Below are positions 3,574 through 21,859 of a stretch of 24,000 nt of DNA, in pieces. Under the pieces are notes generated by a model. The model was not told where the DNA came from. It searched no databases and saw nothing but the letters and a program-made list of their open reading frames with translations. Numbering within the stretch: the first letter of the stretch is position 1; each line of letters opens with the position of its first letter. Made by a program: the position numbers and the translations under genes. This DNA comes from Paucimonas sp. (GTDB taxonomy: Bacteria; Pseudomonadota; Gammaproteobacteria; Burkholderiales; Burkholderiaceae_D), in the NCBI GenBank assembly GCA_035627375.1, contig DASPLX010000034.1, positions 43,033 through 67,032 on the forward strand. The letters are read 5' to 3'.

Positions 3574-3583
3574 GGAACAGCAT

Positions 3584-4405
3584 ATGCACGCTTTATCGAT
3601 GCGCCGCCTTCTTCCGCTGCTGCTTGCCGCTTTCTGCATCATGCCGGCGCGGGCGCAGCAAGTCATCCGGCTATCGACCACCACCAGCACCGACAATTCG
3701 GGCCTGCTGAACCACCTGCTGCCGGCCTTCGAGGCGCGGACCGGTTCCAAGGTGCACGTCATCGCGGTCGGCACCGGCAAGGCGCTCGAAATGGCGAAGA
3801 ACGGCGACGTCGACGCGACCCTGGTGCATGCCCGCCCGGCCGAGGACAAGTTCATGGCCGACGGCCACGGCGCCGGGCGGCGCGACGTGATGTACAACGA
3901 TTTCATCCTGGTCGGACCGGATTCGGATCCGCTCGGCCTGCGCGGCGGGAAGGATATCCTGGCCGCCTTGAAAAGAATCGCCGAGCGCCGCGCGAAGTTC
4001 ATTGCGCGCGGCGACAATTCGGGCACCGACCTGATGGAAAAATCCTGGTGGAAGGAACTCGGCCTCCAACCCGGCGGCGGCAACGGCAACTACCTGTCGG
4101 CCGGACTCGGCATGGGCGCCGTGCTGAACATGGCGGCCGAGTTGCGGGCCTATACGCTGACGGATCGCGCCACGTATGTCGCGTATCGCGCCAAGACCGG
4201 CCTTGCCGTCATGGTGGAGGGCGATCCGCGCATGTTCAATCCTTACGGCATCATCGCCGTCAATGCGGCGCGCCATCCCTCCGTCAATCATCGCGGCGCG
4301 ATGCAATTGATCGAATGGATCACCTCGCCGGAAGGACAACGAAGGATCGCCGGCTTTCGGGTGGAAGGACAGCCCTTGTTTTTTCCGCTGGCCGGTGCCA
4401 AGTGA
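3584..4405 (+). CDS. tupA: Tungstate ABC transporter periplasmic substrate-binding protein (TupA-type)
   Basis: ATG at 3584 follows AAGGAAC. Signal peptide MHALSMRRLLPLLLAAFCIMPARA. The TTTS anion-binding motif (LSTTTSTDNSGLL, codons 3677-3688) is diagnostic of TupA rather than ModA. Confidence 0.8.
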   Translation: MHALSMRRLLPLLLAAFCIMPARAQQVIRLSTTTSTDNSGLLNHLLPAFEARTGSKVHVIAVGTGKALEMAKNGDVDATLVHARPAEDKFMADGHGAGRRDVMYNDFILVGPDSDPLGLRGGKDILAALKRIAERRAKFIARGDNSGTDLMEKSWWKELGLQPGGGNGNYLSAGLGMGAVLNMAAELRAYTLTDRATYVAYRAKTGLAVMVEGDPRMFNPYGIIAVNAARHPSVNHRGAMQLIEWITSPEGQRRIAGFRVEGQPLFFPLAGAK

Positions 4406-6469: not shown

Positions 6470-7223
6470 TTCTCGAGAGCGTGCCGTTTTTTTCCAGGCG
6501 CTGGAATGCGGCTTCCAATGATTTCTCGACGCCCGGGGCGGCGCGCTTGCTGACCCCGAAATAGACCGGATCGGCCGCCAGCACGAAGGAATGCATCGCC
6601 AGCTCCTGGAATTCCGGGTTGGTCTGCAGTTGGTAGGCGACGTAGTTCTGGTCTTCGAAGAAACCGAGATTGCGGCCTCCCGCGGTTTTCTTGGCCAGCA
6701 GCGCGCCTTGCGGCACCGCGTCGAAATGGCGGGCGAAGGTCGCATCGCCGGCCAGGCGGCTGTCGAATGCTTCCGAGTATTTCGCGTCCTTCTGGATGCC
6801 GATCGGCAGCCGTGTCCGGGCCGAGGCCTTGAGCAATTCGTCGAGGTTCGAGATCGGCAATTCCAGATGTTCGCGACGCACCACCAGCACGCGCCGCGAG
6901 ATGCGTTCCGGCCCGACGAAATGCATGAACGCTTCGCGGTCCGGCGTACGCGTCAGGTTCGCCATCATGTCGATCTGCCCGGTTTCCATGTAGAGCAGCG
7001 CGCGCGACCACGGCAATTCGACGAACTCGATGTCGAAACCGGCTTCCTTGACGACGGCTTCCGCCAGTTGGACATCGAGGCCGGTCCAGCGGCCGTCCTT
7101 GAGAAAATAATTCGGCGCGAATTGCGTGACGCGCAGCCTGATTTTTTCCGCTGCCGATGCCGCTCCGTCCGGTACGGAAAGCGCGAGGCCGAGCACAACG
7201 ATGAACCCCGCCAGAACGCGCAT
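6441..7223 (-). CDS. Orphan periplasmic solute-binding protein, family 3 (amino-acid-type PBP fold)
   Basis: ATG at 7223 is preceded by AAGGGAGA. Signal peptide MRVLAGFIVVLGLALSVPDGAASA. Family-3 SBP-like blocks FAPNYFLKDGRWTGLDVQLAEAV and GQIDMM. No permease or ATPase gene is adjacent. Confidence 0.8.
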   Translation of the reverse strand: MRVLAGFIVVLGLALSVPDGAASAAEKIRLRVTQFAPNYFLKDGRWTGLDVQLAEAVVKEAGFDIEFVELPWSRALLYMETGQIDMMANLTRTPDREAFMHFVGPERISRRVLVVRREHLELPISNLDELLKASARTRLPIGIQKDAKYSEAFDSRLAGDATFARHFDAVPQGALLAKKTAGGRNLGFFEDQNYVAYQLQTNPEFQELAMHSFVLAADPVYFGVSKRAAPGVEKSLEAAFQRLEKNGTLSRIRMQWGSDK

Positions 7224-7371
7224 GCTTTCTCCCTTCGAGTCGACCAGGCAGTTTCGCATGCGTCCGGCGAAAATTCCACATGGGCGCGCGCCGGTGTTGC
7301 GGGCTGCGCAAGCCTTGAATCGACCCGCGAATCGCTCTACGATCTGCCATCGCCGCCTTTTCTATCCAAGC

Positions 7372-8604
7372 ATGAAATCTTCGACAAATATCCTGGCCGG
7401 CGCCGTGCTCGGCATGGCGGTCGGCACGAGCGCCCATGCGCTCGATCTGCGCGGCTTGCTCGATGCCCGCATCGTCGCCGCCGATGCCCGGCACGGCTGG
7501 ACCCGCGACGGCCTCGGCAAGATGCGCTACGACCAGGCTTCGGACGGCATCCGCCTGGGGCAAGCCTTCGTGCGCGCCGACGGTGAGCCGCTCGACGCGG
7601 TGACGGTATCCGTCGTGCTGAGCGCCGCGGACGACCGGCATGGAGCGCTCGATGTCAACGAGGCATGGATCGGATGGAATCCGCTCCCTGCCGGTCCCTG
7701 GAAGACGCGCGTGAAGGCGGGCGCATTCTTCCCGGCGACGAGCCTGGAGATCGATTACGACAGCGTCGGCTGGACGCCGGTCCGAACGGTTTCCAGCTCG
7801 GCGCTCAACAGCTGGATCGGCGAAGAATTGCGCACCAAGGGCATCGAATTCAACCTGTCGCGGCGCGGCCGCTTCGCCGGCTCGCCGCATGACGTCGGCT
7901 TCACCGTCGCGCTGTTCAACGGCAACGATCCGGCCGGCACGCTGATCGCCTGGCGCGGCTGGGCGATCAGCGACCGCATCAGCGGCTTGTCTGAACCGTT
8001 GCGCCTGGCGGACCTGCCGGTCTACCGGCCGGACGGCGCCATCGCGAAGCAGAGCCGGACCATCCATCTGTTCCGTGAGATCGACGGCCGGGCCGGATAT
8101 TACGCCGGCGCGCAATACGCTTATGGCGAGCGGCTCGAAGCCGCCGTCCTGCATTACGACAACCGCGGCGATCCGCTGATCGTAAAGAATGGACAATACA
8201 GCTGGACCACGCGTTTCGACCACCTGAGCCTGCGCCTGCGTCCCGGCGGCGGCTGGGAACTGGCCATGCAGGCGATGCAGGGCTCGACCGTCATGGGACG
8301 GGCCGCCGTCCGGCTCGACTACGGCGCCTGGTATCTGCTCGCCAGCCATCCGCTCGGCGGCGGAACGGCGGCGCTGCGTTACGACCGGTTCCGGGCCCGG
8401 GAAGACGATATCCTGCCGTCCGATCCCAACGGCGAAGACGGCAGCGCCTGGGCGTTGGCCTACTCCTACCGCATCAACGACGCGCTGAGCCTGGTTGCCG
8501 AAGCGCTGCTGGTGCGCAGCACCCGGCCGGCGCGCGCGCTGGTCGGCGAGAATCCGCGCCTGACGGAACGCGGCGTGACGGCGGCGTTGCGCTGGCAGTT
8601 CTGA
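7372..8604 (+). CDS. Outer-membrane beta-barrel protein, unknown family
   Basis: ATG at 7372. Signal peptide MKSSTNILAGAVLGMAVGTSAHA. Alternating amphipathic beta-strand pattern, and a C-terminal OMP signature ...GVTAALRWQF ending in Phe. Confidence 0.65.
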   Translation: MKSSTNILAGAVLGMAVGTSAHALDLRGLLDARIVAADARHGWTRDGLGKMRYDQASDGIRLGQAFVRADGEPLDAVTVSVVLSAADDRHGALDVNEAWIGWNPLPAGPWKTRVKAGAFFPATSLEIDYDSVGWTPVRTVSSSALNSWIGEELRTKGIEFNLSRRGRFAGSPHDVGFTVALFNGNDPAGTLIAWRGWAISDRISGLSEPLRLADLPVYRPDGAIAKQSRTIHLFREIDGRAGYYAGAQYAYGERLEAAVLHYDNRGDPLIVKNGQYSWTTRFDHLSLRLRPGGGWELAMQAMQGSTVMGRAAVRLDYGAWYLLASHPLGGGTAALRYDRFRAREDDILPSDPNGEDGSAWALAYSYRINDALSLVAEALLVRSTRPARALVGENPRLTERGVTAALRWQF

Positions 8605-8623: not shown

Positions 8624-9754
8624 CTACTCGGACCAGGCCTCCAGCGCGGCGTTCTCGGCGGCGGGTGCGACTTGCGCCGGCGCCGCCTCCGTGCGCGGCG
8701 GCGCGGCCGCGGCCGCATGCGACGCGCGCTGCAATTGCTTGGGCGATCTGCCGAACCAGCGCTTGCAGGCGCGATGAAACGCGCTGGGCTCGGAGAATCC
8801 GAGCTGGAAGCTCAGCTTCTTCAGCGAGATCTGTCCGCCGCTCAGATACTGCTGCGCCATCGCGCGCCGCGTGTCGTCCACGATCCGGGTGAAATTGGTG
8901 CCTTCCTCGGACAGCCTGCGCTGCAGCGTGCGCTCGCTGATCATCAGCCGCTTCGCGACTTCCTCGCGCAGCGGTTCGCCCTTGGCCAGCATGCCGGCCA
9001 GGAGGCGCTGCACGCGCGCCGAGAAACTCATGCTCGCGCGCTGCAGCAGCGCCGATTCGGCGAACATGCGCAAGGTCCAGTCGGCGGCCGCCGGCGGCGG
9101 CGTCGGGAACGAGATCCGGAGGTCGGCATCGGCGAATTCGACCGTATTGGCGGCGGCATCGAAATGCACCGGGCAGCCGAAGGCTTCCGCGATCGCCTGC
9201 GCTTGCGGCGGACGGGGATAGGCATAGGTGACCAGCAGCGGCCTCAAGCCGTCGCACGCCGCCGCCGAGCGCAGGGTGCGCAACACCATCGACCAGACGA
9301 AATCGTAGCGCTGTCTCGGCACCGGCCGGATCCCGGCCGCCAGGCGCAGCGTGACGCGCGTGCTGGCGGGAGCGCGCTGGGGCAGGTGCTCGATCGCGCT
9401 CTGCACGGTCGGCGACAGCAGCGGCGTATAGCGCACCAGGTTGTCGATCGCCGTCTTGATGTCCGGCGACAGCAGCATGATATGTCCCATCAGGCCGAGC
9501 CAGCCGAGTTGATAGGGCGACGACACGCGAAAGGCGATCAGCGGATCGCCCGAGCGCTGTGCCAGCGTCTCCCACAGATGGCTCAGCTTGTCCGACAGCG
9601 CGGCCGGATCGCTTTCGATGATCCCGGCCGCTCCGCCGGAGTCGATATCGCGGTCGAGGCCGGTCAACCGGAACAGTTCGTCGGCGTCGAAGCCGCAGGC
9701 CGCGAGGCGGGCCTTCATGCCGCGCACCAGATCGCTTGCAGAGGAATAGCTCAT
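8624..9754 (-). CDS. AraC family transcriptional regulator (N-terminal AraC-type effector domain plus C-terminal double HTH)
   Basis: 376 aa, with strong RBS CAGGAGGG. C-terminal HTH_18-type region: REEVAKRLMISERTLQRRLSEEGTNFTRIVDDTRRAMAQQYL...LKKLSFQLGFSEPSAFHRACKRWFGRSP. It ends in an extra Ala/Pro-rich tail of about 40 aa. Confidence 0.9.
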   Translation of the reverse strand: MSYSSASDLVRGMKARLAACGFDADELFRLTGLDRDIDSGGAAGIIESDPAALSDKLSHLWETLAQRSGDPLIAFRVSSPYQLGWLGLMGHIMLLSPDIKTAIDNLVRYTPLLSPTVQSAIEHLPQRAPASTRVTLRLAAGIRPVPRQRYDFVWSMVLRTLRSAAACDGLRPLLVTYAYPRPPQAQAIAEAFGCPVHFDAAANTVEFADADLRISFPTPPPAAADWTLRMFAESALLQRASMSFSARVQRLLAGMLAKGEPLREEVAKRLMISERTLQRRLSEEGTNFTRIVDDTRRAMAQQYLSGGQISLKKLSFQLGFSEPSAFHRACKRWFGRSPKQLQRASHAAAAAPPRTEAAPAQVAPAAENAALEAWSE

Positions 9755-9800
9755 CGTTTCCCTCCTGAAGAAGATTCCATGCTTCGTTGCCGGAGGCGGG

Positions 9801-10391
9801 TCACGGCGCGACGGCGCTGCGCAGCCGCATGCCGATACGCTGCTGCAGCTCTTGCAGTTTCGGATCGATGACGGGGCGCGTGTCGGCCGCGATCTTCTCG
9901 CCGAGCGACTTCTGCAATTCAGGCGCCAGGGCTTCGAACTTGCGTTTCACAGGCGATTCGAGCATCGCGATGATCTGCCGCAGTTCATCCTCGGAAAAGC
10001 GTTCCGCCAGGAGCGGCGCGACCGTCGACGGGATCAGCTTTTGCGCGCTGCCGGTCACGATCGGCGCGGAGTCTTCGAGGAATTTCTTCGCATCGGCGGC
10101 GATCTCGCGCAGCGCGGCGTCGCGCTTCTCCGGCGTGGCGCGGCCTTGCAGCATCGCGCGCGCCTGGTTGACGGCGTCGGCCACCGGTTCTTGCAGCATC
10201 GATTGCCCGAGCGTTTCCACGTGCCACAGCTTGAGCAGGCGCTGCACCAGCTCTTGCTTGGCCGGCGTGATCGGCGCCGAAGCCGGCGCCGATGCCGGCT
10301 TGGCGTCGGCCGCGGCGGCCTGCAGGTTGGCGCAGAGCAGCGCGACGGCGAGGGCGGATTTCAGAACGGCTGCGGAAAATCTGTTCGGCAT
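9801..10391 (-). CDS. Periplasmic alpha-helical protein, DUF2059-like
   Basis: This is only the last 196 codons of track ORF 9801..12014. ATG at 10391 is preceded by AGGAGA. Signal peptide MPNRFSAAVLKSALAVALLCANLQAAAA, then an Ala/Pro linker. The segment SEDELRQIIAMLESPVKRKFEALAPEL resembles the DUF2059 ExSPxGxK block (from memory). Confidence 0.7.
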   Translation of the reverse strand: MPNRFSAAVLKSALAVALLCANLQAAAADAKPASAPASAPITPAKQELVQRLLKLWHVETLGQSMLQEPVADAVNQARAMLQGRATPEKRDAALREIAADAKKFLEDSAPIVTGSAQKLIPSTVAPLLAERFSEDELRQIIAMLESPVKRKFEALAPELQKSLGEKIAADTRPVIDPKLQELQQRIGMRLRSAVAP

Positions 10392-10453
10392 GGCGGTCTC
10401 CTGTCGGTGATTCATACGATGTCGGTCCAAGGCGCTCGGCGGCGGACGCCGCC

Positions 10454-12097
10454 TCAAAAGCGCTGCGTGAAGCTCGCGCCCACGTAGCGCACGCGCAGGT
10501 CGCCGGCGACATCGAGGCCGGCGTACGGGTTGTAAATGATGTTGAAGAAGTTGCTGCAGTTGAGGTTGCAATCGGTATTGGCCGGCACGTTGAACTTGCC
10601 GCGCATGTAGCTGGCGCCGACGTTGAGGTCGCGGCCGCCGCCGAGCTTCATGTTGAAGCCGAGGCTCATGACCTTGGTGTCCGGCAGCGGCGCGATCAGG
10701 TCGATCTTGTCGGCCGGCACCGAGCTCTTGCGCGGCTCGTAGCCGGCGCGCAGCGTGATCCGGCGGCTGAGTTCCGCCTGGATGCCGAAGCCCCAATGCA
10801 CCACGTTGCGGTAGCCGCGCGGAATCTTCAGCTGCGTCGCGTCGGCAAATCCGAACATGCGCGCCACTTCCAGCAGCCGGATGCTCTGGTCGAACTTGAA
10901 GGTCAGCGTGTCCCAGGCACGCCAGTTGGTGTAGTTGGCGTCGATGTTGAGCTGCAGCCGGCGCGTCGGCTTGAATTTCACGCCGATCTGCAAGTGGGCG
11001 GGAAACGGAATGACGGCGGTCATGTTGCCGCTTTGCGTTTCCGGTATCCGGTCCGGCAAGCCGAGCGTGGCCGCGATGATCGGCCCTTGCAGGCTCGCAT
11101 AGAGTCCCTCGACGAACTTGCGCACCATCGCCTCGGTGTTGAAGGTGTAGCGGCCGCTGTAGACGGTCTTCGATCCACCCTGGTAGACGATGCCGAGCGC
11201 GAAGCGGTCCGACGGTTCCCATAGCAAGCCGAGGTTGAGCGTCGGATCGACCGGCGAGGTCATCTCCATCTGCATCGCCGCCACTTTCTTGAAGGGATTC
11301 AGCCGGCCTTCCGGGCCGCCGCTGCACAAGCCCACCGTGAGCGTGTCGATCGGATTGCCGCCGTCCTCCGGGCACCAGCCTCGCTGCGCCTTGCCGGTGA
11401 TGCCGAGCAGGGGATTGGGCATGCGCATGTCGGTGTCGATCACGAACGCCGCATGCGCGATCGGCACCGCGGCGCCGACGCGCAGCGTGTCCGAGAACTT
11501 GTAGCCGATCGCCGGCGACAGGTACACGAGCCGCTGCAGCTGCACCACCTTGCCGTCGTAGCGGCCGGGATCGTTCGGATCCTTGCTGCGGTCGACCGAG
11601 AACGCCTGCGGGATATAGGACAGCGTCGCGAACGTGAACGGCGAGCCGGGGTTGTTGTACGCCAGGCCGAGGCCGGGAATGACGACCCCGGGCAGCTTCC
11701 ACTTCAGCAAGCCGGCCACCGGCAGCAGCAGCCGCTGGCGCACCTTGCCGGTACGCGCGCCGTCGAGCGGATCGTCGGTCCAGCCGCCGATGTCGAAGCC
11801 GGGCGGTTGCGTGAACGAGGCGCCGGTGCGGATCGAGGCGCCCCAGAGGGTGAAAGTTTCCGACCTGCCTTCCATGCGCGCCAGGCCGGCCGGATTGAAG
11901 TGGATCGATTCGATGCCGGGCGGATCGGCGGTGACCGCGTTGCCGAGCGACATGGCGGTGGCACTGGTGGCGAGATTCTCGGTCAACGCGGCATGCGCGG
12001 GCAGCGGCGCGCACGGCAGCAGTCCGGCCGCCAGCAAGGCGGCCAGCCTTGGTCCGCGGAACCGTCGATGCCGGCGGCGCTGGGAACGTCGTGTCAT
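10454..12097 (-). CDS. FadL/TodX/OMPP1-family outer-membrane transport barrel (unusually long, 547 aa)
   Basis: RBS GGAGAG. Signal peptide ending PAHA|AL. The N-terminal hatch motif SATAMSLGNAVTADPPGIESIHFNPAGLA is the conserved NPAGL block of the FadL family. The C-terminus GASFTQRF ends in Phe. Two Cys pairs lie in predicted loops (GWCPEDGG...VGLCSGG; NTDCNLNCSNF). Confidence 0.85.
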   Translation of the reverse strand: MTRRSQRRRHRRFRGPRLAALLAAGLLPCAPLPAHAALTENLATSATAMSLGNAVTADPPGIESIHFNPAGLARMEGRSETFTLWGASIRTGASFTQPPGFDIGGWTDDPLDGARTGKVRQRLLLPVAGLLKWKLPGVVIPGLGLAYNNPGSPFTFATLSYIPQAFSVDRSKDPNDPGRYDGKVVQLQRLVYLSPAIGYKFSDTLRVGAAVPIAHAAFVIDTDMRMPNPLLGITGKAQRGWCPEDGGNPIDTLTVGLCSGGPEGRLNPFKKVAAMQMEMTSPVDPTLNLGLLWEPSDRFALGIVYQGGSKTVYSGRYTFNTEAMVRKFVEGLYASLQGPIIAATLGLPDRIPETQSGNMTAVIPFPAHLQIGVKFKPTRRLQLNIDANYTNWRAWDTLTFKFDQSIRLLEVARMFGFADATQLKIPRGYRNVVHWGFGIQAELSRRITLRAGYEPRKSSVPADKIDLIAPLPDTKVMSLGFNMKLGGGRDLNVGASYMRGKFNVPANTDCNLNCSNFFNIIYNPYAGLDVAGDLRVRYVGASFTQRF

Positions 12098-12110
12098 GTC
12101 ACTCTCCGGT

Positions 12111-13136
12111 CTACAGGCTCAGCGGCAAGCTCAGCCCGAGCGTGAAATTCGGCGAGTCGTTGGTGAGGCCGACGCCGACCGTGATGTTGAGCGTGGTTTT
12201 CGGCGAGATGCGGTAACCGAGGCCGAAATTGAGGATGCCGGCCGTCTGCGTCGTGGTCTTGATCGTCCTGCCGTCGCGGAAGCGCAGCTTGGAGCCGGCC
12301 GAAATCGATTCCTGCAGCGATATCGAGGTCGAGATGTCGTACGACAAGGCGTAGGCGAAACCGAGCCCGAAGCCGAAGCTCATCCCCGGCTCGACCCTGG
12401 TCAGGACGCGGCCGTTGCGGATCTGCGACAGGTGTTTCGCCGGCGCGCTATAGGTCAGGTTGATCGAGCCGAACAGCGCGACCGGATCGACGATATGGTT
12501 GAGATTCAGGCCGGCGCTCAGCGAGGCGACGCCGGAGCCGGTGGCCAGGCCCTTTTCGGCGTCGACCTTGAACGGGCTGCGTCCGGTGGGCAGGCGCAGC
12601 AGCGTGGTGGCCGTCGCCGAGGGACGGCCGCGGCGGGTTTCTAGCGGTTGCCAGCGCAGGCCGAGGCCGATGTCGCCGACCGAGTGCGAGGTTCCTTCGT
12701 ACGCCCGGTTCTGCGAATACTTGCTCACCAGCGGCAGGCTGATGCTGCCGGTCAGGTTGTTCTGGATGCCGTAGTCGACCGTCAGCGTGTTGGTGGCCGT
12801 GTGCGAACTGTCGTTCTCGATGCTGAACAGCGTGAGTTCGCCCGACGACAGGTCGGCGTTGATCCGTTCCTGACCGATGTAGGTGTAGCCGAAGTCGTAG
12901 GTTGCCTGCAGCCTGCCGCGCTTGATCAGCGAGTATTGCTTGTCGACCGCCGTCAGGGTCTGCTTGAGCAAAGTCGATTGGTCGGCGTCGCCTTCCTTCG
13001 GCGCCAGGGCGTCGCGCGCGGCGCTGGCGCTGGCGGCGGCCGCGGGAGCGGCCGGCGTCGCGGCGGGCGGCTGCTGCGCCGCGGCCGGCAGCGCGAACAG
13101 GGCGGCGATCACTCCCAGCGGGGGACGAATCTTCAT
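12111..13136 (-). CDS. Outer-membrane beta-barrel 'transporter' protein (MetA-pathway/PF13557-like, FapF-like architecture)
   Basis: Strong RBS AAGGAG. Signal peptide MKIRPPLGVIAALFALPAAA, then an Ala/Pro-rich linker (QQPPAATPAAPAAAASASAA), a short predicted helix (STLLKQTLTAVDKQYSLIKRG), then a regular amphipathic strand pattern to the C-terminus. It stops 13 nt before the FadL-like gene. Confidence 0.75.
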   Translation of the reverse strand: MKIRPPLGVIAALFALPAAAQQPPAATPAAPAAAASASAARDALAPKEGDADQSTLLKQTLTAVDKQYSLIKRGRLQATYDFGYTYIGQERINADLSSGELTLFSIENDSSHTATNTLTVDYGIQNNLTGSISLPLVSKYSQNRAYEGTSHSVGDIGLGLRWQPLETRRGRPSATATTLLRLPTGRSPFKVDAEKGLATGSGVASLSAGLNLNHIVDPVALFGSINLTYSAPAKHLSQIRNGRVLTRVEPGMSFGFGLGFAYALSYDISTSISLQESISAGSKLRFRDGRTIKTTTQTAGILNFGLGYRISPKTTLNITVGVGLTNDSPNFTLGLSLPLSL

Positions 13137-13263
13137 GAGAACTCCTTGTCGATGATGAACTAACGGTGCCGATGCAAAAGCGCCGGCGAGGAAAACCCGG
13201 TCCGGCCGCTGATCGATGCGGCCGGATTGCTTTCAAGGCGCGCGCCGGGCGTGCGCGATACGT

Positions 13264-14028
13264 TTAACGTCGGCGCAAATAACTGCCGCTGGCGCCCGAA
13301 TGGAGGGCGCGTTCCAGCAGGTAGGCATTGCCCAGCGGCGCGAGGATGGCCCGGTCTTTAACGCGGTCCATATCGAATACGCCCAGCTCCCGGTCGGAGA
13401 GGGCGAGTTGTCCGGCCGGCGGACGGTTCTTCGGCGGGTAGACGATGAACAGGGTATTCCGGTCCCACAGCTTTCCGAATTCGTCGATCGGGATCACGAT
13501 GTTGCCGGCCGATGGATCGGCGATGAACGCCAGGCCGTCGCGCACGCCGCGCAGCACGACGAAGTGCTTGAAGCCGGCATAGTCGATCGGCACGATGGCC
13601 GGATGTTCGAGCGTGAGCAAGTCCTTGACCTCGGCGCGAAAGCCCGCGCTGTCCACGTCGAGCGAAGCGACGTAGCGCTTCATGTCGAGCAGCGAAAAGC
13701 CGCGGCGTTCGATGATCTTCTGTTTCTCGCCGCGCTCGAGCATGCCTTCCATCGCCTGCTGTTCGCTGACGTCGATGCCGATGTGATGCTTGAGCAGGGT
13801 CACGAGCGCCGCCGAACCGCAGCTATAGTCGTAGGCCTGGCGCACGATGTTGCGGTATTTCAATTCGGAAAACGGTTCGATCTCGACCGATTGCGCGACC
13901 GGGCCGGCGGCGGCCGCCGCCAGCGGGAGTTCGAACTGATTCTTCGGACGATCGGCCGGCTCATGCGTGGCCCATGCGCCGGAGCCGGCGATCAGGATGG
14001 CGATCGCGCCGAGCAACATTCCCAACAT
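13264..14028 (-). CDS. Free-standing periplasmic C39-family cysteine peptidase
   Basis: RBS GGAAGGGG. N-terminal signal/anchor MLGMLLGAIAILIAGSGAWA. C39 catalytic blocks are intact: VRQAYDYSCGSAALVTLLKHH (Gln64, Cys70; Cys codon at 13819-13821), FKHFVVLRGV (His155) and FIADPSAGN (Asp171). There is no fused ABC transporter domain. Confidence 0.9.
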   Translation of the reverse strand: MLGMLLGAIAILIAGSGAWATHEPADRPKNQFELPLAAAAAGPVAQSVEIEPFSELKYRNIVRQAYDYSCGSAALVTLLKHHIGIDVSEQQAMEGMLERGEKQKIIERRGFSLLDMKRYVASLDVDSAGFRAEVKDLLTLEHPAIVPIDYAGFKHFVVLRGVRDGLAFIADPSAGNIVIPIDEFGKLWDRNTLFIVYPPKNRPPAGQLALSDRELGVFDMDRVKDRAILAPLGNAYLLERALHSGASGSYLRRR

Positions 14029-14211
14029 AGTGTCCCCTTCCTGTCGCGCCCGGCCTTCCCGCTCTTCGGCGCGATGTCTCTCGCGTTCCGATCTTGCCGG
14101 GAAGCGGCGCGGTAGCCGGTGAAGATTTCGTATCGGCGGGCCGCCTTTTCCATCGGATCATGCGGCGCCGCAAGCTTGCTCAAATGTACGGGGAGAGCGG
14201 GACGGCGCTTT

Positions 14212-14229
14212 CATCCGTTCGGATGAATA
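14212..14229. promoter_or_regulatory. Perfect 8+2+8 palindrome TTCATCCG-TT-CGGATGAA (candidate operator upstream of the C39 operon)
   Basis: Read directly from the sequence. It lies between the regulator stop (14323) and the C39 start (14028). Each arm contains GGATGA, the core of the E. coli MalT box. Confidence 0.35.
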
Positions 14230-14322
14230 AGGGTTGTGCGAGGTCAATCGCCTACGTCGCGCCGGTAAGCAGATGTAACAGAGCGAGGACGTCTTTCCCC
14301 GCAAAAATGAACAGGAAAGATT

Positions 14323-17115
14323 TCAGGAAAGAATCGCCCGCTTGCGCGCGATCGAAATCGCTTCCGTGCGGTTGTGCGCGCCGAGCTTCAGGTTGATGTT
14401 GCGCAGATGGGTCTTGACGGTCGTGATGGAGACGAACAGCTTCTCGGCGATCGCTTGATTGCCGCAACCTTGCGCCAGGAGTTTCAGTACGTCGAGTTCG
14501 CGGCCGGTCAATTCGCTTTCGCTCATCAGCGCCTGCAGGCGCGGCTCGTGCGCGGCCGCCGGCAGGTGGCGCATGAAGGGCGCATGGATGGCGGCGACGA
14601 AACGGTATAGCGCCGCATGCTCTTCGCCGGGCGGATCCTGCATGCCTTCCAGCAGGTCGCGGATCAGGGCCAGCAGCGCGGGGCCTTCATCCTTGAAGAG
14701 GCGCACGAATCCTTCCGCCTGCGCTTCCTGCAGCGTTTCGCGCATGGTGCGCAGGGCAGGATTGCGTTGGCCGGCATGGGATAGCGCGAGCGCATGCAAT
14801 ACCTTGACCCGCAGGGCATAGCGCACGCGGCCGCGCGCATGGACGTCCTGCAAATGCTCCTTGAACAGCGGCAGGGTCATGGCCGCCTGGCCGCAATGGA
14901 CTTGCAGGCGCAGATAGGAAAGCATCGGCGTTTCGAGGTCGTTCGCGATCATCTGCACGCCGTTGTATTGCCAGGCCGGCGCGGCGCCGACCAGGGCCTG
15001 CAGCGAACGCGCGGATTCGATGTCGCCGTCGAGCAGGGCGCAGCGCGCGCGTTCCAGTCGGGCGACGTCGATCACGCGCGGCAGGTTGCGCTGCATGCCG
15101 AGCTGCTCCAGGTCGAGCAGGGTTTGCAAGGCGTCGTTGCCGTTGCGTTCGGCGCGCAGGATGCGCGCGTAGATGACGTGGCTGGCGATCAGCTGGTCGG
15201 GAATGCCGGCATCCTTGACCAGCGGCAGATAGTGCGTCAGCAGCCGCTTGGCGTCGTCGAGCTGGTCGGTCTCGTAGAGCACTTCGGCCAGGTAGAGGCT
15301 GGCGAAGCCGGTATCGGCGCCGTAGCGCGGATTCGTCGACCCGGCATCGGCGCCGATCAGGGCGCGCAGGCGCGGGCCGGTGCTGCGCAGGCGCACGTGC
15401 GTGTCGTTGCCGATCAAGGCGCGCAGGCGGGCGCCGGCGGCGCGCAGCCGGCCTTGCAGGATGTCGAGCATGGCGTGTATATAGCCCGCTACCCCGACCG
15501 AAAACAATGGCCCGACCGCCGAATGTTCGCGCGTCGCCTGGTCGAGCAGGACGCGCGCTTCCTGGTAGCGGCCGATGGTGGCGTAGTAGTAGGCGCAACC
15601 GATCATCAGCATGCTGCGCAGCAGGGGTTCGCCGGCGGCGCCGCCAAGAATGTGCGGGTCTTCCCACATCGGCGCGGTTTGCTCGATGCGGTCGAGCATC
15701 ACCAGGCTGAAGGTTTTCAGCACCAGGTAGGTCGGATGCGAGATCGAGGCGGTTCGCGGCGGCACGCCGCCGGGATTGACCGCTGCCTCCAGCAGCGCCA
15801 GCGCCTCGGCGCTGCGGTTGATGTGGATCAGCGACCAGGCATGGACCGACAGCAGTTGCGGGCGGGCGGCGACGGCGCCGCGGTCGAGCGCATCGAACCA
15901 GCGCGCGAGCAGGCGCACCCTGCCTTGCAGGAACAAGGCCTGCGCGTGACGATCGAGCAGGTCGAGCGCGAGCTCGCTATCGGCGGCGGCGATCGCATGC
16001 TCGATCGCGTGCGTGGGATGTCCTTGTTCGTCATACCAGCCGGCCGCGCGCCGGTGCAGCACGATGGACAAGCCCGGATGCCGCTGTTCGAGCTGGGCGC
16101 GCAGAAAGCCGGCGAACAACGGGTGATAGGTGAACCAGACGTGCTGCTCGTCGACCGCGGTGATGAACATGTTGGAACGTTCCACTTCGCGGATCAGCGC
16201 GTCGCCGTCGTCGCGGCCGGTGACGGCGTTGCAGCTGTCGGCGCAGAACTTGTGCAGGATGCTGGTCTGCAGGATGAAGTCCTGCACATGGGGCGGCCGG
16301 TGCGACAGCACGTCTTCGGCAAGATAGGCGGACACGACCGAATTGCAGCCCGAGAAGTTGCGGATGAAGCGCTTCGGATCTTCATGGCTTTCCAGTGCCA
16401 TCGACGATAGCCATAGCGCCGCGGCCCAGCCGCCGGTGATCTCGTGGAAGCGCTCGACCTCGCCGCGCTCGAGCTTGAGCCGGCGCTTCTCGCACAGGAA
16501 TTGCCCGGTCTCGGCCAGCGAGAAGCGCAATTGCTCCGCGCCGATTTCGAGCAGTTGCTGGCGCGCGCGCAGGCGCGCCAAGCTTAGCGCCGGCTGCTCG
16601 CGCGAACCGATCACGATGCGCTGCTGCGGGCTCAGCATGTCGATCAATTGCTGGATCACCGACAGCGCCGCCGGATTGTGCAGGTGTTCGAATTCGTCGA
16701 GGATCAGGAGGAAGGGCAGCGGCGTGGCCGCGATCGCCTGCGTCAGCTCGAACCCGCTGCCGCCGTCGAGCGGGCGCAAGGCGTGCTGCCCGGCCGGATG
16801 GAGCGTCGCGAATGCCTGCGCCAGGCAGGTCATGAAGCGGTCGAGATCGTTGTCGCCGGCGTCGAGCGTGAGCCAGGCGACCGCGCTGTCGGCGATCGAT
16901 ACGTCGTACAGGTGACGCAGCAGCGTGCTCTTGCCGAATCCGGCCGGCGCTTCCACCAGGATCAGTTTCGCCGTTTCCGCATGGCGCATGCGCTCCAACA
17001 GCCGGTCGCGCGCCACGAAAGGCGCGGCCATGGCTGGCGGTTTCAGCTTCGACGGCGCCGGTCGAAGTACTGACGGTCTTTCCGGCGCGTAATTAGGCAG
17101 TGCGGACGATCGCAT
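14323..17115 (-). CDS. MalT/LAL-type large ATP-binding LuxR-family transcriptional regulator (STAND NTPase + helical sensor + LuxR HTH)
   Basis: About 930 aa. The N-terminus PSKLKPPAMAAPFVARDRLLERM parallels MalT PSKLSRP...VRERLL. Walker A is EAPAGFGKSTLL and Walker B is FLLILDEFEHL. C-terminal LuxR HTH: LTGRELDVLKLLAQGCGNQAIAEKLFVSITTVKTHLRNINLKLG. Start is ATG at 17115 (a GTG at 17118 is also possible). Confidence 0.9.
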   Translation of the reverse strand: MRSSALPNYAPERPSVLRPAPSKLKPPAMAAPFVARDRLLERMRHAETAKLILVEAPAGFGKSTLLRHLYDVSIADSAVAWLTLDAGDNDLDRFMTCLAQAFATLHPAGQHALRPLDGGSGFELTQAIAATPLPFLLILDEFEHLHNPAALSVIQQLIDMLSPQQRIVIGSREQPALSLARLRARQQLLEIGAEQLRFSLAETGQFLCEKRRLKLERGEVERFHEITGGWAAALWLSSMALESHEDPKRFIRNFSGCNSVVSAYLAEDVLSHRPPHVQDFILQTSILHKFCADSCNAVTGRDDGDALIREVERSNMFITAVDEQHVWFTYHPLFAGFLRAQLEQRHPGLSIVLHRRAAGWYDEQGHPTHAIEHAIAAADSELALDLLDRHAQALFLQGRVRLLARWFDALDRGAVAARPQLLSVHAWSLIHINRSAEALALLEAAVNPGGVPPRTASISHPTYLVLKTFSLVMLDRIEQTAPMWEDPHILGGAAGEPLLRSMLMIGCAYYYATIGRYQEARVLLDQATREHSAVGPLFSVGVAGYIHAMLDILQGRLRAAGARLRALIGNDTHVRLRSTGPRLRALIGADAGSTNPRYGADTGFASLYLAEVLYETDQLDDAKRLLTHYLPLVKDAGIPDQLIASHVIYARILRAERNGNDALQTLLDLEQLGMQRNLPRVIDVARLERARCALLDGDIESARSLQALVGAAPAWQYNGVQMIANDLETPMLSYLRLQVHCGQAAMTLPLFKEHLQDVHARGRVRYALRVKVLHALALSHAGQRNPALRTMRETLQEAQAEGFVRLFKDEGPALLALIRDLLEGMQDPPGEEHAALYRFVAAIHAPFMRHLPAAAHEPRLQALMSESELTGRELDVLKLLAQGCGNQAIAEKLFVSITTVKTHLRNINLKLGAHNRTEAISIARKRAILS
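15352..15447. repeat. Imperfect in-frame tandem duplication, 57-bp period, inside the regulator gene
   Basis: GCCGATCAGGGCGCGCAGGCGCGGGCCGGTGCTGCGCAG (15352-15390) versus GCCGATCAAGGCGCGCAGGCGGGCGCCGGCGGCGCGCAG (15409-15447). By my count 33 of 39 positions are identical. The encoded peptides are ..ARLRALIGNDTHV.. and ..PRLRALIGADAGS... Confidence 0.6.
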
Positions 17116-17291
17116 CACCGGACACGGAAATGAAAGGGAATGAGTTACCGCCCTGCTCGAGAACGGCGGCTAGTGGTTCGATATCTCCCGATTGCCTTGG
17201 CATGAATCGCAAATCGGGGTATGGCGGGCCACTAGACCACTAGGCTTCCGAGGCGGAGGTAACAGGTTACAGAGGATTGTCAAAAATGCTA

Positions 17292-17307
17292 TAGAGCGAT
17301 CGCTCTA
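17292..17307. promoter_or_regulatory. Perfect 16-bp palindrome TAGAGCGATCGCTCTA in the divergent control region
   Basis: Read directly. It lies in the AT-richer 606-bp intergenic region between the regulator gene and the secreted-protein operon. This is a candidate dimeric-regulator operator. Confidence 0.35.
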
Positions 17308-17646
17308 ATTGCCGTGCTTTTTTGGAATTCCGGCTGATTGCAGGAAAGAGAAGGCAAGCGAGGGCGTATTCGAGCGCAAGGGAGGACACTCTTCCGGTAT
17401 CCCTACTGAAGATAGGCATGGTCTTGTCTCCGTATATTCTGGCCGGTCTGGCGCCGGCTCATTATGAGGTGGCTATTATGCCGCAAAAAAATTGCCGCAC
17501 AACAGTTCCCGGGAGCGTGGATTTTTCCTTATGGAACAACAAGATGTGGAACGGAAACCGAATTCGCGCGCGTGGCTCTCGCTGCCATGCGTTTGGCTTC
17601 GGAGGTCAGCCCGCGAGGGCACGGGAATTCTGGCCACTGTCCTAAC

Positions 17647-17695
17647 ATGAAGGCTCTTAATATTGTCTCAATGTTAAGAGTTGCAGTGCCTTCAT
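17647..17695 (+). promoter_or_regulatory. Composite inverted repeat / leader hairpin about 30 nt upstream of the first secreted-protein gene
   Basis: Outer arms ATGAAGGC (17647-17654) and GCCTTCAT (17688-17695). Inner arms TCTTAA (17655-17660) and TTAAGA (17674-17679). The right outer arm reads GGATGAAGG on the minus strand, the same heptamer as the 14212 palindrome. Confidence 0.35.
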
Positions 17696-17724
17696 CCTTC
17701 CGAAATTCCTCTAGGAGACCGACT

Positions 17725-18255
17725 ATGAAATTTAGCTTGATCAAGAAAACCGCCATCGCCGCTGCGTTGTCCTCGTTCGCCCTGGGCGCGTCCGCCATGA
17801 CGACGATCGACGATGCGGACCTATCCAAGGTCAGCGGCCAGGACGGCGTGTCGATCGCCGTCGACCTGAATATCAATGTCGGTGAATTCAGGTACACCGA
17901 TACCGATACGGACGGCGGTTCGGTCAGCTTCAACAACATTCGGACGACCGGTACGATCGCCGCGACGCTGGACGTGATCAGCGGCGCGACTTTCGCGACC
18001 CTGGGTACCGGCGAAGCCTACACCGTGCTCGGCCTCGACCCGACCGCGGCCAATACGCAAGCCAACATCGCGGCCTTCTACGGCGGCGGCGACGTCGTGA
18101 AGATCGCCATCCCGGATCTGGACGTCACGGCCGGCCATACGCTGAGCCAGACCATCGACAGCATCCGGATGGGCGGCTCGACCAAGTCCTTCGGCAGCTT
18201 CGCGATGAACAACATCCGTCTCCAGGGCACGACGGCTTACATCTGGGCTCACTAA
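17725..18255 (+). CDS. Secreted subunit-like protein A (176 aa): Sec signal peptide + double-glycine-leader-like motif; candidate major subunit (DUF6160/FilA-like from memory)
   Basis: AGGAG lies 7 nt upstream of ATG 17725. Signal peptide MKFSLIKKTAIAAALSSFALGASA, then MTTIDDADLSKVSGQ|DGVSIAV. Mature part has no Cys, is Thr/Gly/Asp/Ile-rich and has repeated xNNIRxxGT blocks. The C-terminus is ...TAYIWAH. Confidence 0.85.
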   Translation: MKFSLIKKTAIAAALSSFALGASAMTTIDDADLSKVSGQDGVSIAVDLNINVGEFRYTDTDTDGGSVSFNNIRTTGTIAATLDVISGATFATLGTGEAYTVLGLDPTAANTQANIAAFYGGGDVVKIAIPDLDVTAGHTLSQTIDSIRMGGSTKSFGSFAMNNIRLQGTTAYIWAH

Positions 18256-18361: not shown

Positions 18362-19138
18362 ATGATGCTTGCCCGCTTCTTGCCAGCCGGATGCCTGCTC
18401 GCCTTGGTATGCGCCGCTCCGGCATCGGCGCAACTGCGTCCCATGAGCGAACCCGAGCTGTCGGACATGCACGCTCAAGGCTTGATCGAATTGAGCAACA
18501 GCAGCCATGGCGGCTTCGATTTCACGCGCATCGCGTTCGGCGCGGACGTGCGATTGAATGCGAATTTCCGCAATATCCGTCTCGGCGAATATCACTACGC
18601 GACGCGCGACGGCAGCGGCGCCGACCTCGACATCCCGCTGCTGCGATTCGGCCGCACCGACGGCACGGCGGCGCAGCGCGTGGTGGAGATCACCAATCCC
18701 TATTTCGAATTCATCTATCGCAACGCGGGCAACGCGGCCCAACGAGAAATCGTCGGCATCCGCTTCGGCTTCGACGGCATCGCCGGCGACGTCGGCCTGG
18801 CGATGACGACGCTATCCGGCTCGCTGCGCATCGACGGCGGGGCGGCCGGGGTCCTCGATTCGCGCACCGATGCCGGCGGCGGCAAGCGCTGGGACGGCGC
18901 GTGCGCGGCGCCGTGCCTGAACCTGAACCAGATCGGCGGCGTGCGCGCCGGCGATCTGAGCGGTCCGAGCCGCGACTTCTGGGTCGCGGCGGTCAAGGTG
19001 CCGGTGCAATTCCAGGCGCCGTCCGGCACGACCCAGGTGCCGGATGTCGCGCAACCGGGCTTCTGGCTCAATTGGCGCGACAAGCTCGCCGCCATCAACG
19101 TCAACGGCGCGCCGCCGCCCAACGTCGCCGGAAAATGA
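18362..19138 (+). CDS. Secreted paralog B (258 aa) with degenerate GG-leader-like motif
   Basis: Signal peptide MMLARFLPAGCLLALVCAAPASA, then QLRPMSEPELSDMHAQ|GLIEL. It shares the FRNIRLG block with A, C and D. Mature part contains one Cys pair (GACAAPC). Its stop overlaps the gene C start. Confidence 0.8.
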   Translation: MMLARFLPAGCLLALVCAAPASAQLRPMSEPELSDMHAQGLIELSNSSHGGFDFTRIAFGADVRLNANFRNIRLGEYHYATRDGSGADLDIPLLRFGRTDGTAAQRVVEITNPYFEFIYRNAGNAAQREIVGIRFGFDGIAGDVGLAMTTLSGSLRIDGGAAGVLDSRTDAGGGKRWDGACAAPCLNLNQIGGVRAGDLSGPSRDFWVAAVKVPVQFQAPSGTTQVPDVAQPGFWLNWRDKLAAINVNGAPPPNVAGK

Positions 19139-20049
19139 CGATGAACGGGCCGATCCGACGCTGGCTCCGCTTTGCGGCCGCGACCTGTTGCGCGGGCATC
19201 GCAGCGGGAAGCGCCATGCCTGTCGCTCATGCGCAGGGCTTGCGCCCGCTCGACGACGCCGCGTTGTCGGCGGTGCAGGGGCGCGACGGCCTGAGCTTCG
19301 ACCTCGCGAACTTCTCGATGGCGGGCGACGCCCGCATCACCTATTACGCACCGGCGCCATCGACCGCTAGCGCCTGGGTCGGCAACTTGTATGCGGCGCG
19401 TTCCGACGATCCCGCCAACCCGTTCGGCGATCCCTATCGTCTCGACATCGTGCGGCGCGGCGGCGGCCTGGCCGATGTCGTCGAGCTCGCCTTTCCGGTC
19501 AACGCCAACGGCGCGCAGCGCTGGCAATTCGCCTACGACTGGGGCGTTGCCGCCGGCGGCATCGATGCTGAGGGCGGCAGCGTCGTATTCAAGGATGCGG
19601 TGTTCTACGGCGGCGGCATGCAATGGTCGACGCCGCGCGACGTCGAGGGCATGGCGTTCGGGCTCGCGCTGCGCCTCGATATCGGCAACCTGTTGCTGCG
19701 TCCGCGCGGACGCGGCGATATCGGCGCCGTCGATGGCGCCGCCGAGCAGATGAATATCCGCGGCGTGCGCATCGGCGCCGTCGACGGCGCCGGCAATTTC
19801 CTGGGTACGCCATGGCGCATCGCGGACGTGACGGCGCAACCCGGGATCGTCAACGCCGTACCGGACGCCAGCGGCACGCCGCGCCTGCATGTCGGCATCG
19901 ATTGGCCGGACACGGGCGCCGCCGCGCTCGGCGGACTGCAGATCGACAATCTTTCGTTCAAGAGCGATGTGACCGGCAATCTCGATCTCGGCTCGAGCCG
20001 TATCGGTTCGATGCAGATCCAGTATCTCGATATCAAATTTCGACCTTAG
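19135..20049 (+). CDS. Secreted paralog C (304 aa) with GG-leader-like motif
   Basis: ATG at 19135 overlaps the gene B stop (ATGA). This is only the last 304 codons of track ORF 18391..20049. Signal peptide ...AGSAMPVAHA, then QGLRPLDDAALSAVQGR|DGLSFDL. It contains an MNIRGVRIG block. Confidence 0.8.
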   Translation: MTMNGPIRRWLRFAAATCCAGIAAGSAMPVAHAQGLRPLDDAALSAVQGRDGLSFDLANFSMAGDARITYYAPAPSTASAWVGNLYAARSDDPANPFGDPYRLDIVRRGGGLADVVELAFPVNANGAQRWQFAYDWGVAAGGIDAEGGSVVFKDAVFYGGGMQWSTPRDVEGMAFGLALRLDIGNLLLRPRGRGDIGAVDGAAEQMNIRGVRIGAVDGAGNFLGTPWRIADVTAQPGIVNAVPDASGTPRLHVGIDWPDTGAAALGGLQIDNLSFKSDVTGNLDLGSSRIGSMQIQYLDIKFRP

Positions 20050-20052
20050 GCC

Positions 20053-20514
20053 ATGTTGAACCTGTTCATCCTCTTGCTATTGTGGTGCTGCTGCAGCCTG
20101 GCGGCGCAGGGAGCGCGTTCGCTGAACGACGAAGAGCTCGCGCAAATCAGCGGCGGCGACGGCGTCAGCATGGCGGTGCACCTGGCGCTGAACGATCCGG
20201 CCTCGTCCGGCGGCGGGAGCGAGAACCGGATCGCGATCGGTACCGCGGTCGATGGGCAGACCAATTACATCGTCGTCCGGAATCTGCGCGGCACGATCGA
20301 TATGTTCGCCGTCAATCTGAGCGTGCGGAAGAAGCCGGACGGCGGCGACTATCTTGCGCTCGGCCTGCCAGGCTATATCCGCTTCGGCGGCTTCGGCTTC
20401 GATTCCCTGAGCGTGCAGGCCGATCCTTCGGGGCCGGTCACGCAGAGCCTCGGACGGATCGATATCAACGGCACGCTCTCGATGCAAGGACAACTGCGCC
20501 TGTGGGCGCACTGA
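20053..20514 (+). CDS. Secreted paralog D (153 aa) with canonical double-glycine motif
   Basis: Starts 3 nt after the gene C stop. Hydrophobic N-terminus MLNLFILLLLWCCCSLAAQG, then ARSLNDEELAQISGG|DGVSMAV (motif codons 20122-20157). VRNLRGT block. C-terminus ...QLRLWAH, like protein A. Confidence 0.8.
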   Translation: MLNLFILLLLWCCCSLAAQGARSLNDEELAQISGGDGVSMAVHLALNDPASSGGGSENRIAIGTAVDGQTNYIVVRNLRGTIDMFAVNLSVRKKPDGGDYLALGLPGYIRFGGFGFDSLSVQADPSGPVTQSLGRIDINGTLSMQGQLRLWAH

Positions 20515-20739: not shown

Positions 20740-21147
20740 ATGATATCGACACCCCCTATTCACGACCGCTCATTGACCGTACTCGTCATCGAGGACAACC
20801 GAGACCTTGCCCGCCTGTTCTGCGATCTGCTCGAGGTCATGGGATGCATCGCTCATGTCGCCTGGAGCGCGCAGGCGGGTCTCGAGTTGGCGCTGGAAAA
20901 GACGCCGGACCTGATTTTCTGCGACCTCGGCATGCCCGGCGACAAGGACGGTTTCGACGTGGCGGCGGAAGTGCGCGGCCATCAGTCGCTCAAAGATACC
21001 TGGCTCATCGCCGTGACCGGTTTCTCGGAAGCGGAGACCCATGAGCGGGCGCGCAATGCCGGCTTCAACCGGGTATTCGCCAAGCCGGTCAAATTCGCGC
21101 AATTGCAAAACGTTCTGAACGATTTCAAGATCGCGCATCCTCTCTGA
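20740..21147 (+). CDS. Single-domain response regulator (CheY-like receiver only)
   Basis: 135 aa. Receiver signature residues are present: VLVIEDN (acidic pocket), LIFCDLGMPG (phospho-acceptor Asp62), IAVTG and FAKPV (Lys). There is no output domain and no histidine kinase in the window. Confidence 0.85.
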   Translation: MISTPPIHDRSLTVLVIEDNRDLARLFCDLLEVMGCIAHVAWSAQAGLELALEKTPDLIFCDLGMPGDKDGFDVAAEVRGHQSLKDTWLIAVTGFSEAETHERARNAGFNRVFAKPVKFAQLQNVLNDFKIAHPL

Positions 21148-21404
21148 ATTTCCGATTCCCTCTTCTCCTTTCGGCGCCGTCGGACGGCATGCCCGTCGTC
21201 GCGCGTCCGCGCTCCGCGCCACGGGCTAGCCTTGCCGCGCCTGCGGTCATTGCCTATTTTTCATCCTGCGGCTTTTGTTGCATTTCGGCCTCTGTATTCT
21301 CTAAAACATTGGTCAAAACATATTCGGCCTCGTAACATGGAATCGCCATCGAACACTTGATGGCCATCAATCATCGGGATCTTCCAGAGACGAGGTAAAT
21401 GGCA

Positions 21405-21815
21405 ATGAAAAGCAAACTGTGTTTTCTTGCGCCGCTGGTTCTTTTGTCCGCGGTATCGTTGCCGGCCGCTGCCGAGCTGGCGATCATCGTGAATCCCCAG
21501 AATCCCGCGACACGCATGCTCGGTTCGCAGGCGGCGCAATTCTTTCTGGGCGGTTCGACCATGTTCGCGCCGGTCGAGCAGGCCGAGAATTCGCCGCTGC
21601 GGGCGGAGTTCTACAAGAAGGTTTTGGAAAAGGAGCCGGCCCAGGTGAAGGCCATCTGGGCCAAGCTGCTCTTCACGGGCAAGGTCAAGGCTCCGCAGGA
21701 AGGCAAGTCGAGCGCCGAAGTCAAGAAGCTGGTGAGCCAAAGCATGAATGCCATTGGGTACATCGAAAAATCAGAGGTCGACGACACCGTCAAGGTGGTC
21801 GCCATCATTCCTTGA
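21405..21815 (+). CDS. Short periplasmic PstS-like (type-2 PBP fold fragment) protein
   Basis: GAGG lies 9 nt before ATG 21405 (an alternative ATG is at 21399). Signal peptide MKSKLCFLAPLVLLSAVSLPAAA. ELAIIVNPQNP...FFLGG...AIWAKLLFTGK...NAIGYIEKSEVDDTVKVV matches the ~140-aa proteins commonly annotated as phosphate ABC substrate-binding protein. Confidence 0.75.
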   Translation: MKSKLCFLAPLVLLSAVSLPAAAELAIIVNPQNPATRMLGSQAAQFFLGGSTMFAPVEQAENSPLRAEFYKKVLEKEPAQVKAIWAKLLFTGKVKAPQEGKSSAEVKKLVSQSMNAIGYIEKSEVDDTVKVVAIIP

Positions 21816-21859
21816 GGCGCGACGCCGTCGAACCCAATTACCCTAACAGGAGATATTCG

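Follow-up and report, generated by a model that had tools for sequence, protein, structure and literature searches.

We identified a stand-alone C39 cysteine peptidase of the little-studied FilB family, with an intact catalytic set, that most likely trims a bacteriocin-style leader off Sec-exported subunits of a recently imaged pilus-like filament. We put the probability of this reading at roughly 0.6, since both the export of the enzyme, whose N-terminus is atypical, and the cleavage itself are inferred. If correct, it would provide a concrete substrate for a class of periplasmic proteases whose targets are unknown, although the gene itself belongs to an already catalogued family.

The FilB-like peptidase and its locus

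The window analyzed here is the whole 24,000-nucleotide stretch of the Paucimonas sp. contig DASPLX010000034.1 (assembly GCA_035627375.1), and it contains the following features relevant to this system, with the C39 gene on the minus strand and the four candidate subunit genes, A to D, on the plus strand:
9801..10415 (-), DUF2059 exported protein, last gene of the operon
10454..12097 (-), filD-like gene, FadL/TodX-family outer-membrane barrel
12111..13136 (-), filC-like gene, FapF-related outer-membrane barrel with signal peptide
13264..14028 (-), filB-like gene, stand-alone C39 cysteine peptidase of 254 aa
13267..13437 (-), C-terminal tail of the peptidase (residues 198-254) with the conserved motif LxLS[DE]x[DE]L.., function unknown
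13444..13851 (-), C39 catalytic domain (residues 60-195), with Gln64 (13837-13839), Cys70 (13819-13821), His155 (13564-13566) and Asp171 (13516-13518)
13969..14028 (-), N-terminal hydrophobic segment (residues 1-20, MLGMLLGAIAILIAGSGAWA), a signal peptide or, more likely, an uncleaved membrane anchor
14323..17118 (-), MalT-type LuxR-family regulator between the two gene blocks
17725..18255 (+), subunit A (DUF6160/FilA-like, 176 aa), predicted major filament subunit, with Sec signal 1-24, leader 25-39 (17797-17841, MTTIDDADLSKVSGQ) and mature protein from Asp40
18362..19138 (+), subunit B (258 aa), with signal 1-23 and leader 24-39 (18431-18478, ..PELSDMHAQ|GL)
19135..20049 (+), subunit C (304 aa, DUF6160), with signal 1-33 and leader 34-50 (19234-19284, ..LDDAALSAVQGR|DG)
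20053..20514 (+), subunit D (153 aa), with signal 1-21 and leader 22-35 (20116-20157, RSLNDEELAQISGG|DG), a literal double-glycine leader

The ATG-initiated ORF of 254 codons is preceded by a GGAAGGGGA ribosome-binding site 5 nt upstream, with no in-frame start further upstream, whereas the antisense ORF 13216..14115 (+) is a high-GC artefact. Its translation contains QAYDYSCGSAAL (Gln64, Cys70), KHFVVL (His155) and IADPSAG (Asp171), and Pfam Peptidase_C39 (PF03412) matches residues 60-195 (E=1.2e-18, 67.7 bits against a cut-off of 22). An identical protein is deposited as 'C39 family peptidase [Paucimonas sp.]' from a MAG (Oxalobacteraceae), and more than 3200 relatives score E<=1e-5. In an alignment of 40 relatives down to about 30% identity, we observe that Q64, D67, C70, G71, H155, F156, D171, P172 and G175 are invariant, and HMMER alignment to PCAT1 and LahT pairs the Cys, His and Asp motifs. 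An AlphaFold model (AF2, pLDDT 84, core above 90, with low confidence in the C-terminal tail) superposes in Foldseek on the ComA peptidase domain (TM 0.80-0.82), on LahT150 bound to its leader (TM 0.82, rmsd 2.0 A) and on PCAT1, with rmsd 2.0-2.8 A to 3k8u, 5xe8 and 6mpz. Placement with unrelated papain-like hydrolases does not apply. We also considered whether the conserved tail motif acts as a pseudo-substrate, but a PSSM built from 96 leaders scored FilB sequences no better than shuffled ones (-6.2 against -7.3 +/- 4.3), and the best hits did not fall consistently in the tail, so this idea was rejected for lack of support.

With respect to family assignment, NCBIfam FilB ("putative pilus system C39 family peptidase") is the best match (E=3.7e-65), followed by FapD (E=1.9e-36). 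The downstream genes match FilC (E=5e-87), FapF (E=9e-27) and Pfam Phenol_MetA_deg for the first barrel, FilD (E=6e-126), a weak PorV/PorQ match and Pfam Toluene_X (E=7e-40) for the second, and Pfam DUF2059 for the last gene, while the regulator matches NCBIfam MalT (E=2e-109) and Pfam TPR_MalT, GerE and AAA. FilA is the best NCBIfam hit for a fourth gene of the locus. All NCBIfam scores are far below the curated cut-offs, which belong to narrow "exception" models, indicating a distant orthologue and not a strict member. Intergenic gaps are 127 nt (filB-filC) and 13 nt (filC-filD), and a terminator and promoter scan of 9600-18000 found nothing between filB, filC and filD, with counts at or below the number expected from shuffles, which is consistent with an operon but uninformative about promoters. 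The sequence-only reading, that a stand-alone C39 enzyme with a complete catalytic set heads an operon with two outer-membrane barrels and no ABC partner, is therefore supported; the only ABC genes in the window (2153-4405) form a binding-protein-dependent importer.

A scan of one genome per species returned 80 related loci, and FilB-FilC-FilD are adjacent, in that order, in every locus as far as its contig reaches. These loci span beta- and gamma-proteobacteria and Desulfoluna, and include Ideonella, Vitreoscilla, Pseudomonas, Marinobacter, Alcanivorax, Oleiphilaceae, Thalassolituus, Acinetobacter (19 Acinetobacter-type loci) and Alkanindiges. Ideonella benzenivorans has A-B-C-D-FilB-FilC-FilD-DUF2059 on one strand, Undibacterium parvum has A, B and C-type genes (no D-type ORF detected) ahead of the same FilB-FilC-FilD-DUF2059 block, and Pseudomonas species have two MalT-type regulators, then A, then FilBCD. 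The DUF2059 gene has the same position in the Ideonella, Vitreoscilla and Undibacterium loci, and homologous regulators also flank filB in Marinobacter. The divergent arrangement in the window is thus a rearranged version of a single conserved unit.

Candidate substrates and a homologous filament

The four divergent genes about 3.7 kb away are the best substrate candidates, as the sequence-only reading had proposed. Each begins with a classical Sec signal ending A-x-A, followed by a short conserved segment, which reads MTTIDDADLSKVSGQ|DG in A, QLRPMSEPELSDMHAQ|GL in B, QGLRPLDDAALSAVQGR|DG in C and RSLNDEELAQISGG|DG in D; in A, the predicted cut after Gln39 falls within the peptide MTTIDDADLSKVSGQDGVSIAV. 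The description of these proteins as carrying a GG motif is literally true only for D, since A has Gly-Gln, B has Ala-Gln and C has Gly-Arg at the equivalent positions. An HMM iterated on the related loci found 60 ORFs with a Sec signal plus the leader motif in 52 of the 80 loci, nearly all just upstream of filB. A logo from 141 unique family members shows -15 M/L, -12 I/M/L, -10 D (95%), -7 L (91%), -6 S (83%), -4 V (73%), -2 G (99%), -1 Q (84%) or R (14%), +1 D (92%) and +2 G (99%). Hydrophobic residues at -4, -7, -12 and -15 with Gly at -2 form the established recognition pattern of double-glycine leaders for C39 domains, as in ComA, LahT and PCAT1.

The register is confirmed independently by subunit D, whose post-signal segment scores 19.1 bits on TIGR01847 "bacteriocin_sig" (curated cut-off 15.7), with the alignment ending exactly at Gly-Gly, and weaker matches to ComC, Bacteriocin_IIc, Lactococcin and lactococcin-G-beta leaders fall in the same register. 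The leader HMM matches C (E=5e-9) and, weakly, B (E=0.085), and in the window the motif occurs only in A-D, not in FilC, FilD, DUF2059 or FilB itself. Orthologues of B in Ideonella and Undibacterium carry ..GQ|AL and ..SGQ|GL, orthologues of C also have QGR|DG, and the Ideonella orthologue of D has G-A at these positions. It should be noted that 28 of the 80 FilBCD loci have no leader-bearing gene within 10 kb and instead carry a conserved lipoprotein after FilD, and that A-type genes can be unlinked from filBCD.

Subunit A matches Pfam DUF6160 (E=4e-23), and its AlphaFold model (pLDDT 76) has one significant PDB match, 9xfv_A, "Pilus-like-alpha" (E=5e-11, 37% identity), whereas PDB searches with B, C and D gave no matches. 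9XFV is a helical filament (rise 11.7 A, twist 283.9 degrees) imaged by cryo-EM directly from karst-cave water, the sequence of which was read from the density and matched to UniProt A0A257CJ09 (PMC12956863). By sequence, A matches it at E=1.9e-25 and the family profile matches it at E=8.6e-43, and the 173-residue chain aligns end to end with profile positions 38-178, beginning DGVSIAGDLNIN.., at the Asp that follows Gly-Gln, and ending at the invariant C-terminal ..WAH. Only 57-76% identical relatives of the 9XFV subunit were found as precursors, and all of these encode a signal peptide plus ..GQ|DGVSIAG... The PDB chain lists only residues built into density, so an uncleaved but disordered leader is not strictly excluded; Gly at +2 is as conserved as Gly at -2, so a cut after Asp-Gly cannot be ruled out from sequence alone; and Gln or Arg at P1 is unprecedented for C39 enzymes, canonical members of which accept only Gly/Ala/Ser. 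Nevertheless, DUF6160/FilA proteins do build extracellular filaments, and the ordered subunit starts exactly where a C39 enzyme would be predicted to cut. Signal peptidase I cannot make that cut, because Gln or Arg at -1 breaks the established -1/-3 rule and 15 polar residues separate the site from the hydrophobic core, so a second protease is required, and the one protease in the conserved locus is FilB.

Proposed pathway and alternative readings

We propose that FilB acts on the periplasmic side of the inner membrane, probably tethered by its N-terminal hydrophobic helix, as the leader (propilin) peptidase of a Fil/DUF6160 pilus-like filament. In this model, subunits A-D are exported by Sec and signal peptidase I removes the classical signal (inferred), exposing a ~15-residue amphipathic, double-glycine-type leader that FilB would dock in its hydrophobic groove and cut after Gly(-2)-Gln/Arg/Gly(-1), releasing a mature subunit that starts Asp-Gly. 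Mature subunits would then cross the outer membrane through the FapF-like FilC barrel, with the FadL-like FilD barrel acting as a second channel or anchor (both roles being inferred), and polymerise into a helical filament, with a MalT-type regulator controlling both divergent operons. In its broadest form, which we consider about as likely as not, Fil/DUF6160 filaments would be a distinct class of Gram-negative pilus whose subunits carry a tandem Sec signal plus double-glycine-type leader and are matured in the periplasm by a dedicated C39 peptidase with relaxed P1 specificity (Gly-Gln, Gly-Arg, Gly-Gly). This would be the first defined substrate and recognition code for the large family of stand-alone periplasmic C39 peptidases, FapD included.

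The periplasmic location of FilB is inferred. The sequence-only reading had proposed a cleavable-looking signal or anchor with an AWA|T site, but the A-x-A site is not conserved, 169 of 213 relatives have no Lys or Arg before the hydrophobic segment (which is modelled as a helix), and Pseudomonas and Acinetobacter orthologues begin M-[IL]-E, so that an uncleaved anchor is at least as likely as a cleaved signal. We favour an anchor with the domain facing the periplasm, since flanking charges lean that way (mean net charge of -0.5 over the 15 residues after the segment), orthologues in FilB-FilC loci of Macondimonas-like genomes and more distant relatives have classical basic signal peptides, all partners are periplasmic or outer-membrane proteins, and FapD functions in the periplasm, where its active-site Cys is required for Fap secretion (PMC5557850).

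An alternative, which we regard as unlikely, is that FilB is a periplasmic protease needed for secretion but targets the machinery, for example by cutting the periplasmic linker of the FilC barrel to open or close the channel, as speculated for FapD and FapF, with the subunit motif serving as a targeting signal for FilC or FilD that is removed by another protease. Rouse et al. proposed FapF or FapE as FapD targets and could not identify the substrate (PMC5557850), and FilB-FilC adjacency is universal while subunit genes are absent from 28 of 80 loci. However, the leader HMM finds no leader-like motif in FilC, FilD or DUF2059 in the window, the subunit motif has the exact register of C39 leaders, the mature end in 9XFV sits exactly at that site, and no other protease is encoded in the conserved locus. 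A cytoplasmic C39 domain acting on cytoplasmic precursors or on an unlinked substrate unrelated to A-D is more doubtful still; the absent basic n-region, the Glu at position 3 of some orthologues, the 12-20-residue hydrophobic segment, the unconserved signal-peptidase site and the cytoplasmic location of canonical C39 domains would agree with it, but a cytoplasmic cut after the leader would remove the Sec signal and block export of A-D, in addition to the topology arguments given above. Finally, a non-proteolytic chaperone or docking module, as in RTX exporters such as HlyB (among the weaker structural matches), is very improbable, since C39-like domains lack the Cys that is invariant here along with Gln, His and Asp, the FapD Cys-to-Ala mutant abolishes function, and the modelled filament chain lacks the leader.

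Relation to known systems

The arrangement is less unprecedented than the sequence-only reading implied, as NCBIfam already names this family, FapD is an experimentally periplasmic stand-alone C39 peptidase, and about 986 clusters at 50% identity match at E<=1e-10, with nearly all of the best-scoring representatives being 200-300 aa and having no room for an ABC module. What appears to be new is the mechanism that the locus points to, namely leader processing of the bacteriocin type, moved to the periplasm and combined with a FapF-type channel and a pilus-like product. In the literature that we could search, we found no paper that describes a Sec signal followed by a double-glycine-type leader, assigns substrates to FilB or FapD, or links 9XFV to a biogenesis locus. 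The locus links this filament of unknown origin to a candidate FilB, FilC and FilD pathway that is widespread in soil Oxalobacteraceae, Pseudomonas, Acinetobacter and marine hydrocarbon degraders.

Compared with FilB of the Acinetobacter filABCDEF 'putative pilus system' (NCBIfam NF050078), the protein shares the catalytic motifs, the hydrophobic N-terminal segment and the filB-filC-filD gene order with a FilA/DUF6160 subunit gene nearby, but it scores 220 bits against a cut-off of 475 (45-52% identity). Here there are four leader-bearing subunit genes, divergently transcribed and separated from filB by a MalT-type regulator, and a DUF2059 gene replaces filE/filF. No published mechanism for the Acinetobacter system was found in the literature that we could search, only FilF having been studied, as a vaccine antigen and type II secretion lipoprotein. 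The AupA/AupB alkane-uptake system is not the same system, since AupA is FadL-like but sits in a different two-gene operon with no peptidase.

In the Pseudomonas Fap functional-amyloid system, FapD (NCBIfam NF058616) is likewise a stand-alone C39 peptidase paired with a FapF-family outer-membrane barrel, but our protein scores 125.5 bits against a cut-off of 330, there are no FapA, B, C or E amyloid genes here, the cargo is a folded DUF6160 filament subunit, and an extra FadL-like barrel is present. FapD has a classical signal peptide and has had no identified substrate since 2017, whereas here a leader motif points to the substrates. As a functional analogue, the type IV prepilin peptidase PilD would similarly remove a short leader ending in Gly from pilus subunits before polymerisation, although it is probably best seen as an unrelated polytopic aspartyl protease that cuts on the cytoplasmic face.

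The C39 domains of the peptidase-containing ABC transporters ComA, LahT and PCAT1 share the predicted fold and the catalytic Gln/Cys/His/Asp, and their substrates carry an amphipathic leader with hydrophobic residues at -4, -7, -12 and -15 and Gly at -2. In contrast, the FilB-like protein is not fused to an ABC transporter and is predicted to work after Sec export, in the periplasm, with a predicted P1 residue that is mostly Gln or Arg rather than Gly/Ala/Ser and with a 14-30 kDa filament subunit, not a small peptide, as its cargo.

C-terminal motifs of the subunits and of FilB

The A-type and D-type subunits end in an invariant C-terminal motif, at the following positions of the window:

18241-18255, C terminus of subunit A, ..Y-I-W-A-H-COOH
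20500-20514, C terminus of subunit D, ..R-L-W-A-H

In the D-type subunit of Ideonella the corresponding ending is W-A-R. In the family alignment (A2), we observe that His176 is invariant in 38 relatives, and the motif is retained at the end of the 9XFV chain, whereas B and C end differently. The motif may be an assembly or secretion signal.

The tail of FilB beyond the C39 domain (window 13267-13437, residues 198-254) carries a conserved LxLS[DE]x[DE]L[RG]x[VI][DE] motif across the FilB clade, although this region is modelled with low confidence. The idea that the tail mimics the leader was not supported by a PSSM test.

Other genes and low-GC stretches in the window

We observe that GC content drops to 0.56 to 0.58 in two stretches of the window (21000-23000 and 17000-18000), against about 0.66 elsewhere. 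The first stretch holds a Porin_4 gene next to a stand-alone response-regulator receiver gene, and the second is the 600-bp divergent promoter region between the regulator and subunit A. In addition, the window encodes a 492-amino-acid ORF with no Pfam family, which has an internal signal-peptide-like start and a C-terminal ..AALRWQF typical of outer-membrane barrels. These genes lie at the following positions:

7126-8604 (+), 492-amino-acid ORF with no Pfam family
20740-21147, stand-alone response-regulator receiver gene
within 21419-23020, Porin_4 gene

Subunit genes and gene content of the related loci

With respect to the distribution of subunit genes, the genome of Undibacterium parvum holds at least three nearly identical A-type subunit genes (loci L081, 10001-10507, and L083, 5594-7842), one of which is unlinked, about 1.4 Mb from filBCD. 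This suggests subunit paralogy or antigenic variation. Furthermore, a DUF6160 fragment with the bacterial leader (protein P0396 in our searches) is deposited under the yeast Metschnikowia pulcherrima on a 502-bp contig, which is probably bacterial contamination of a eukaryotic assembly.

Across the related genome loci L013 to L059, the genomes carrying FilBCD are conspicuously rich in hydrocarbon degraders, with Marinobacter, Alcanivorax, Oleiphilus, Thalassolituus, Bermanella, Macondimonas, Alkanindiges, Acinetobacter, and Ideonella benzenivorans all represented, and the operon also includes a FadL-type barrel. Loci without a nearby leader-bearing gene (L013, L017, L030, L033, L035, L042, and L053) have a conserved lipoprotein-like gene immediately after filD, with the motif Y[FY]TWVDEQGRVRYSP. 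This gene may be the FilE equivalent, whereas the window has a DUF2059 gene in that position instead.
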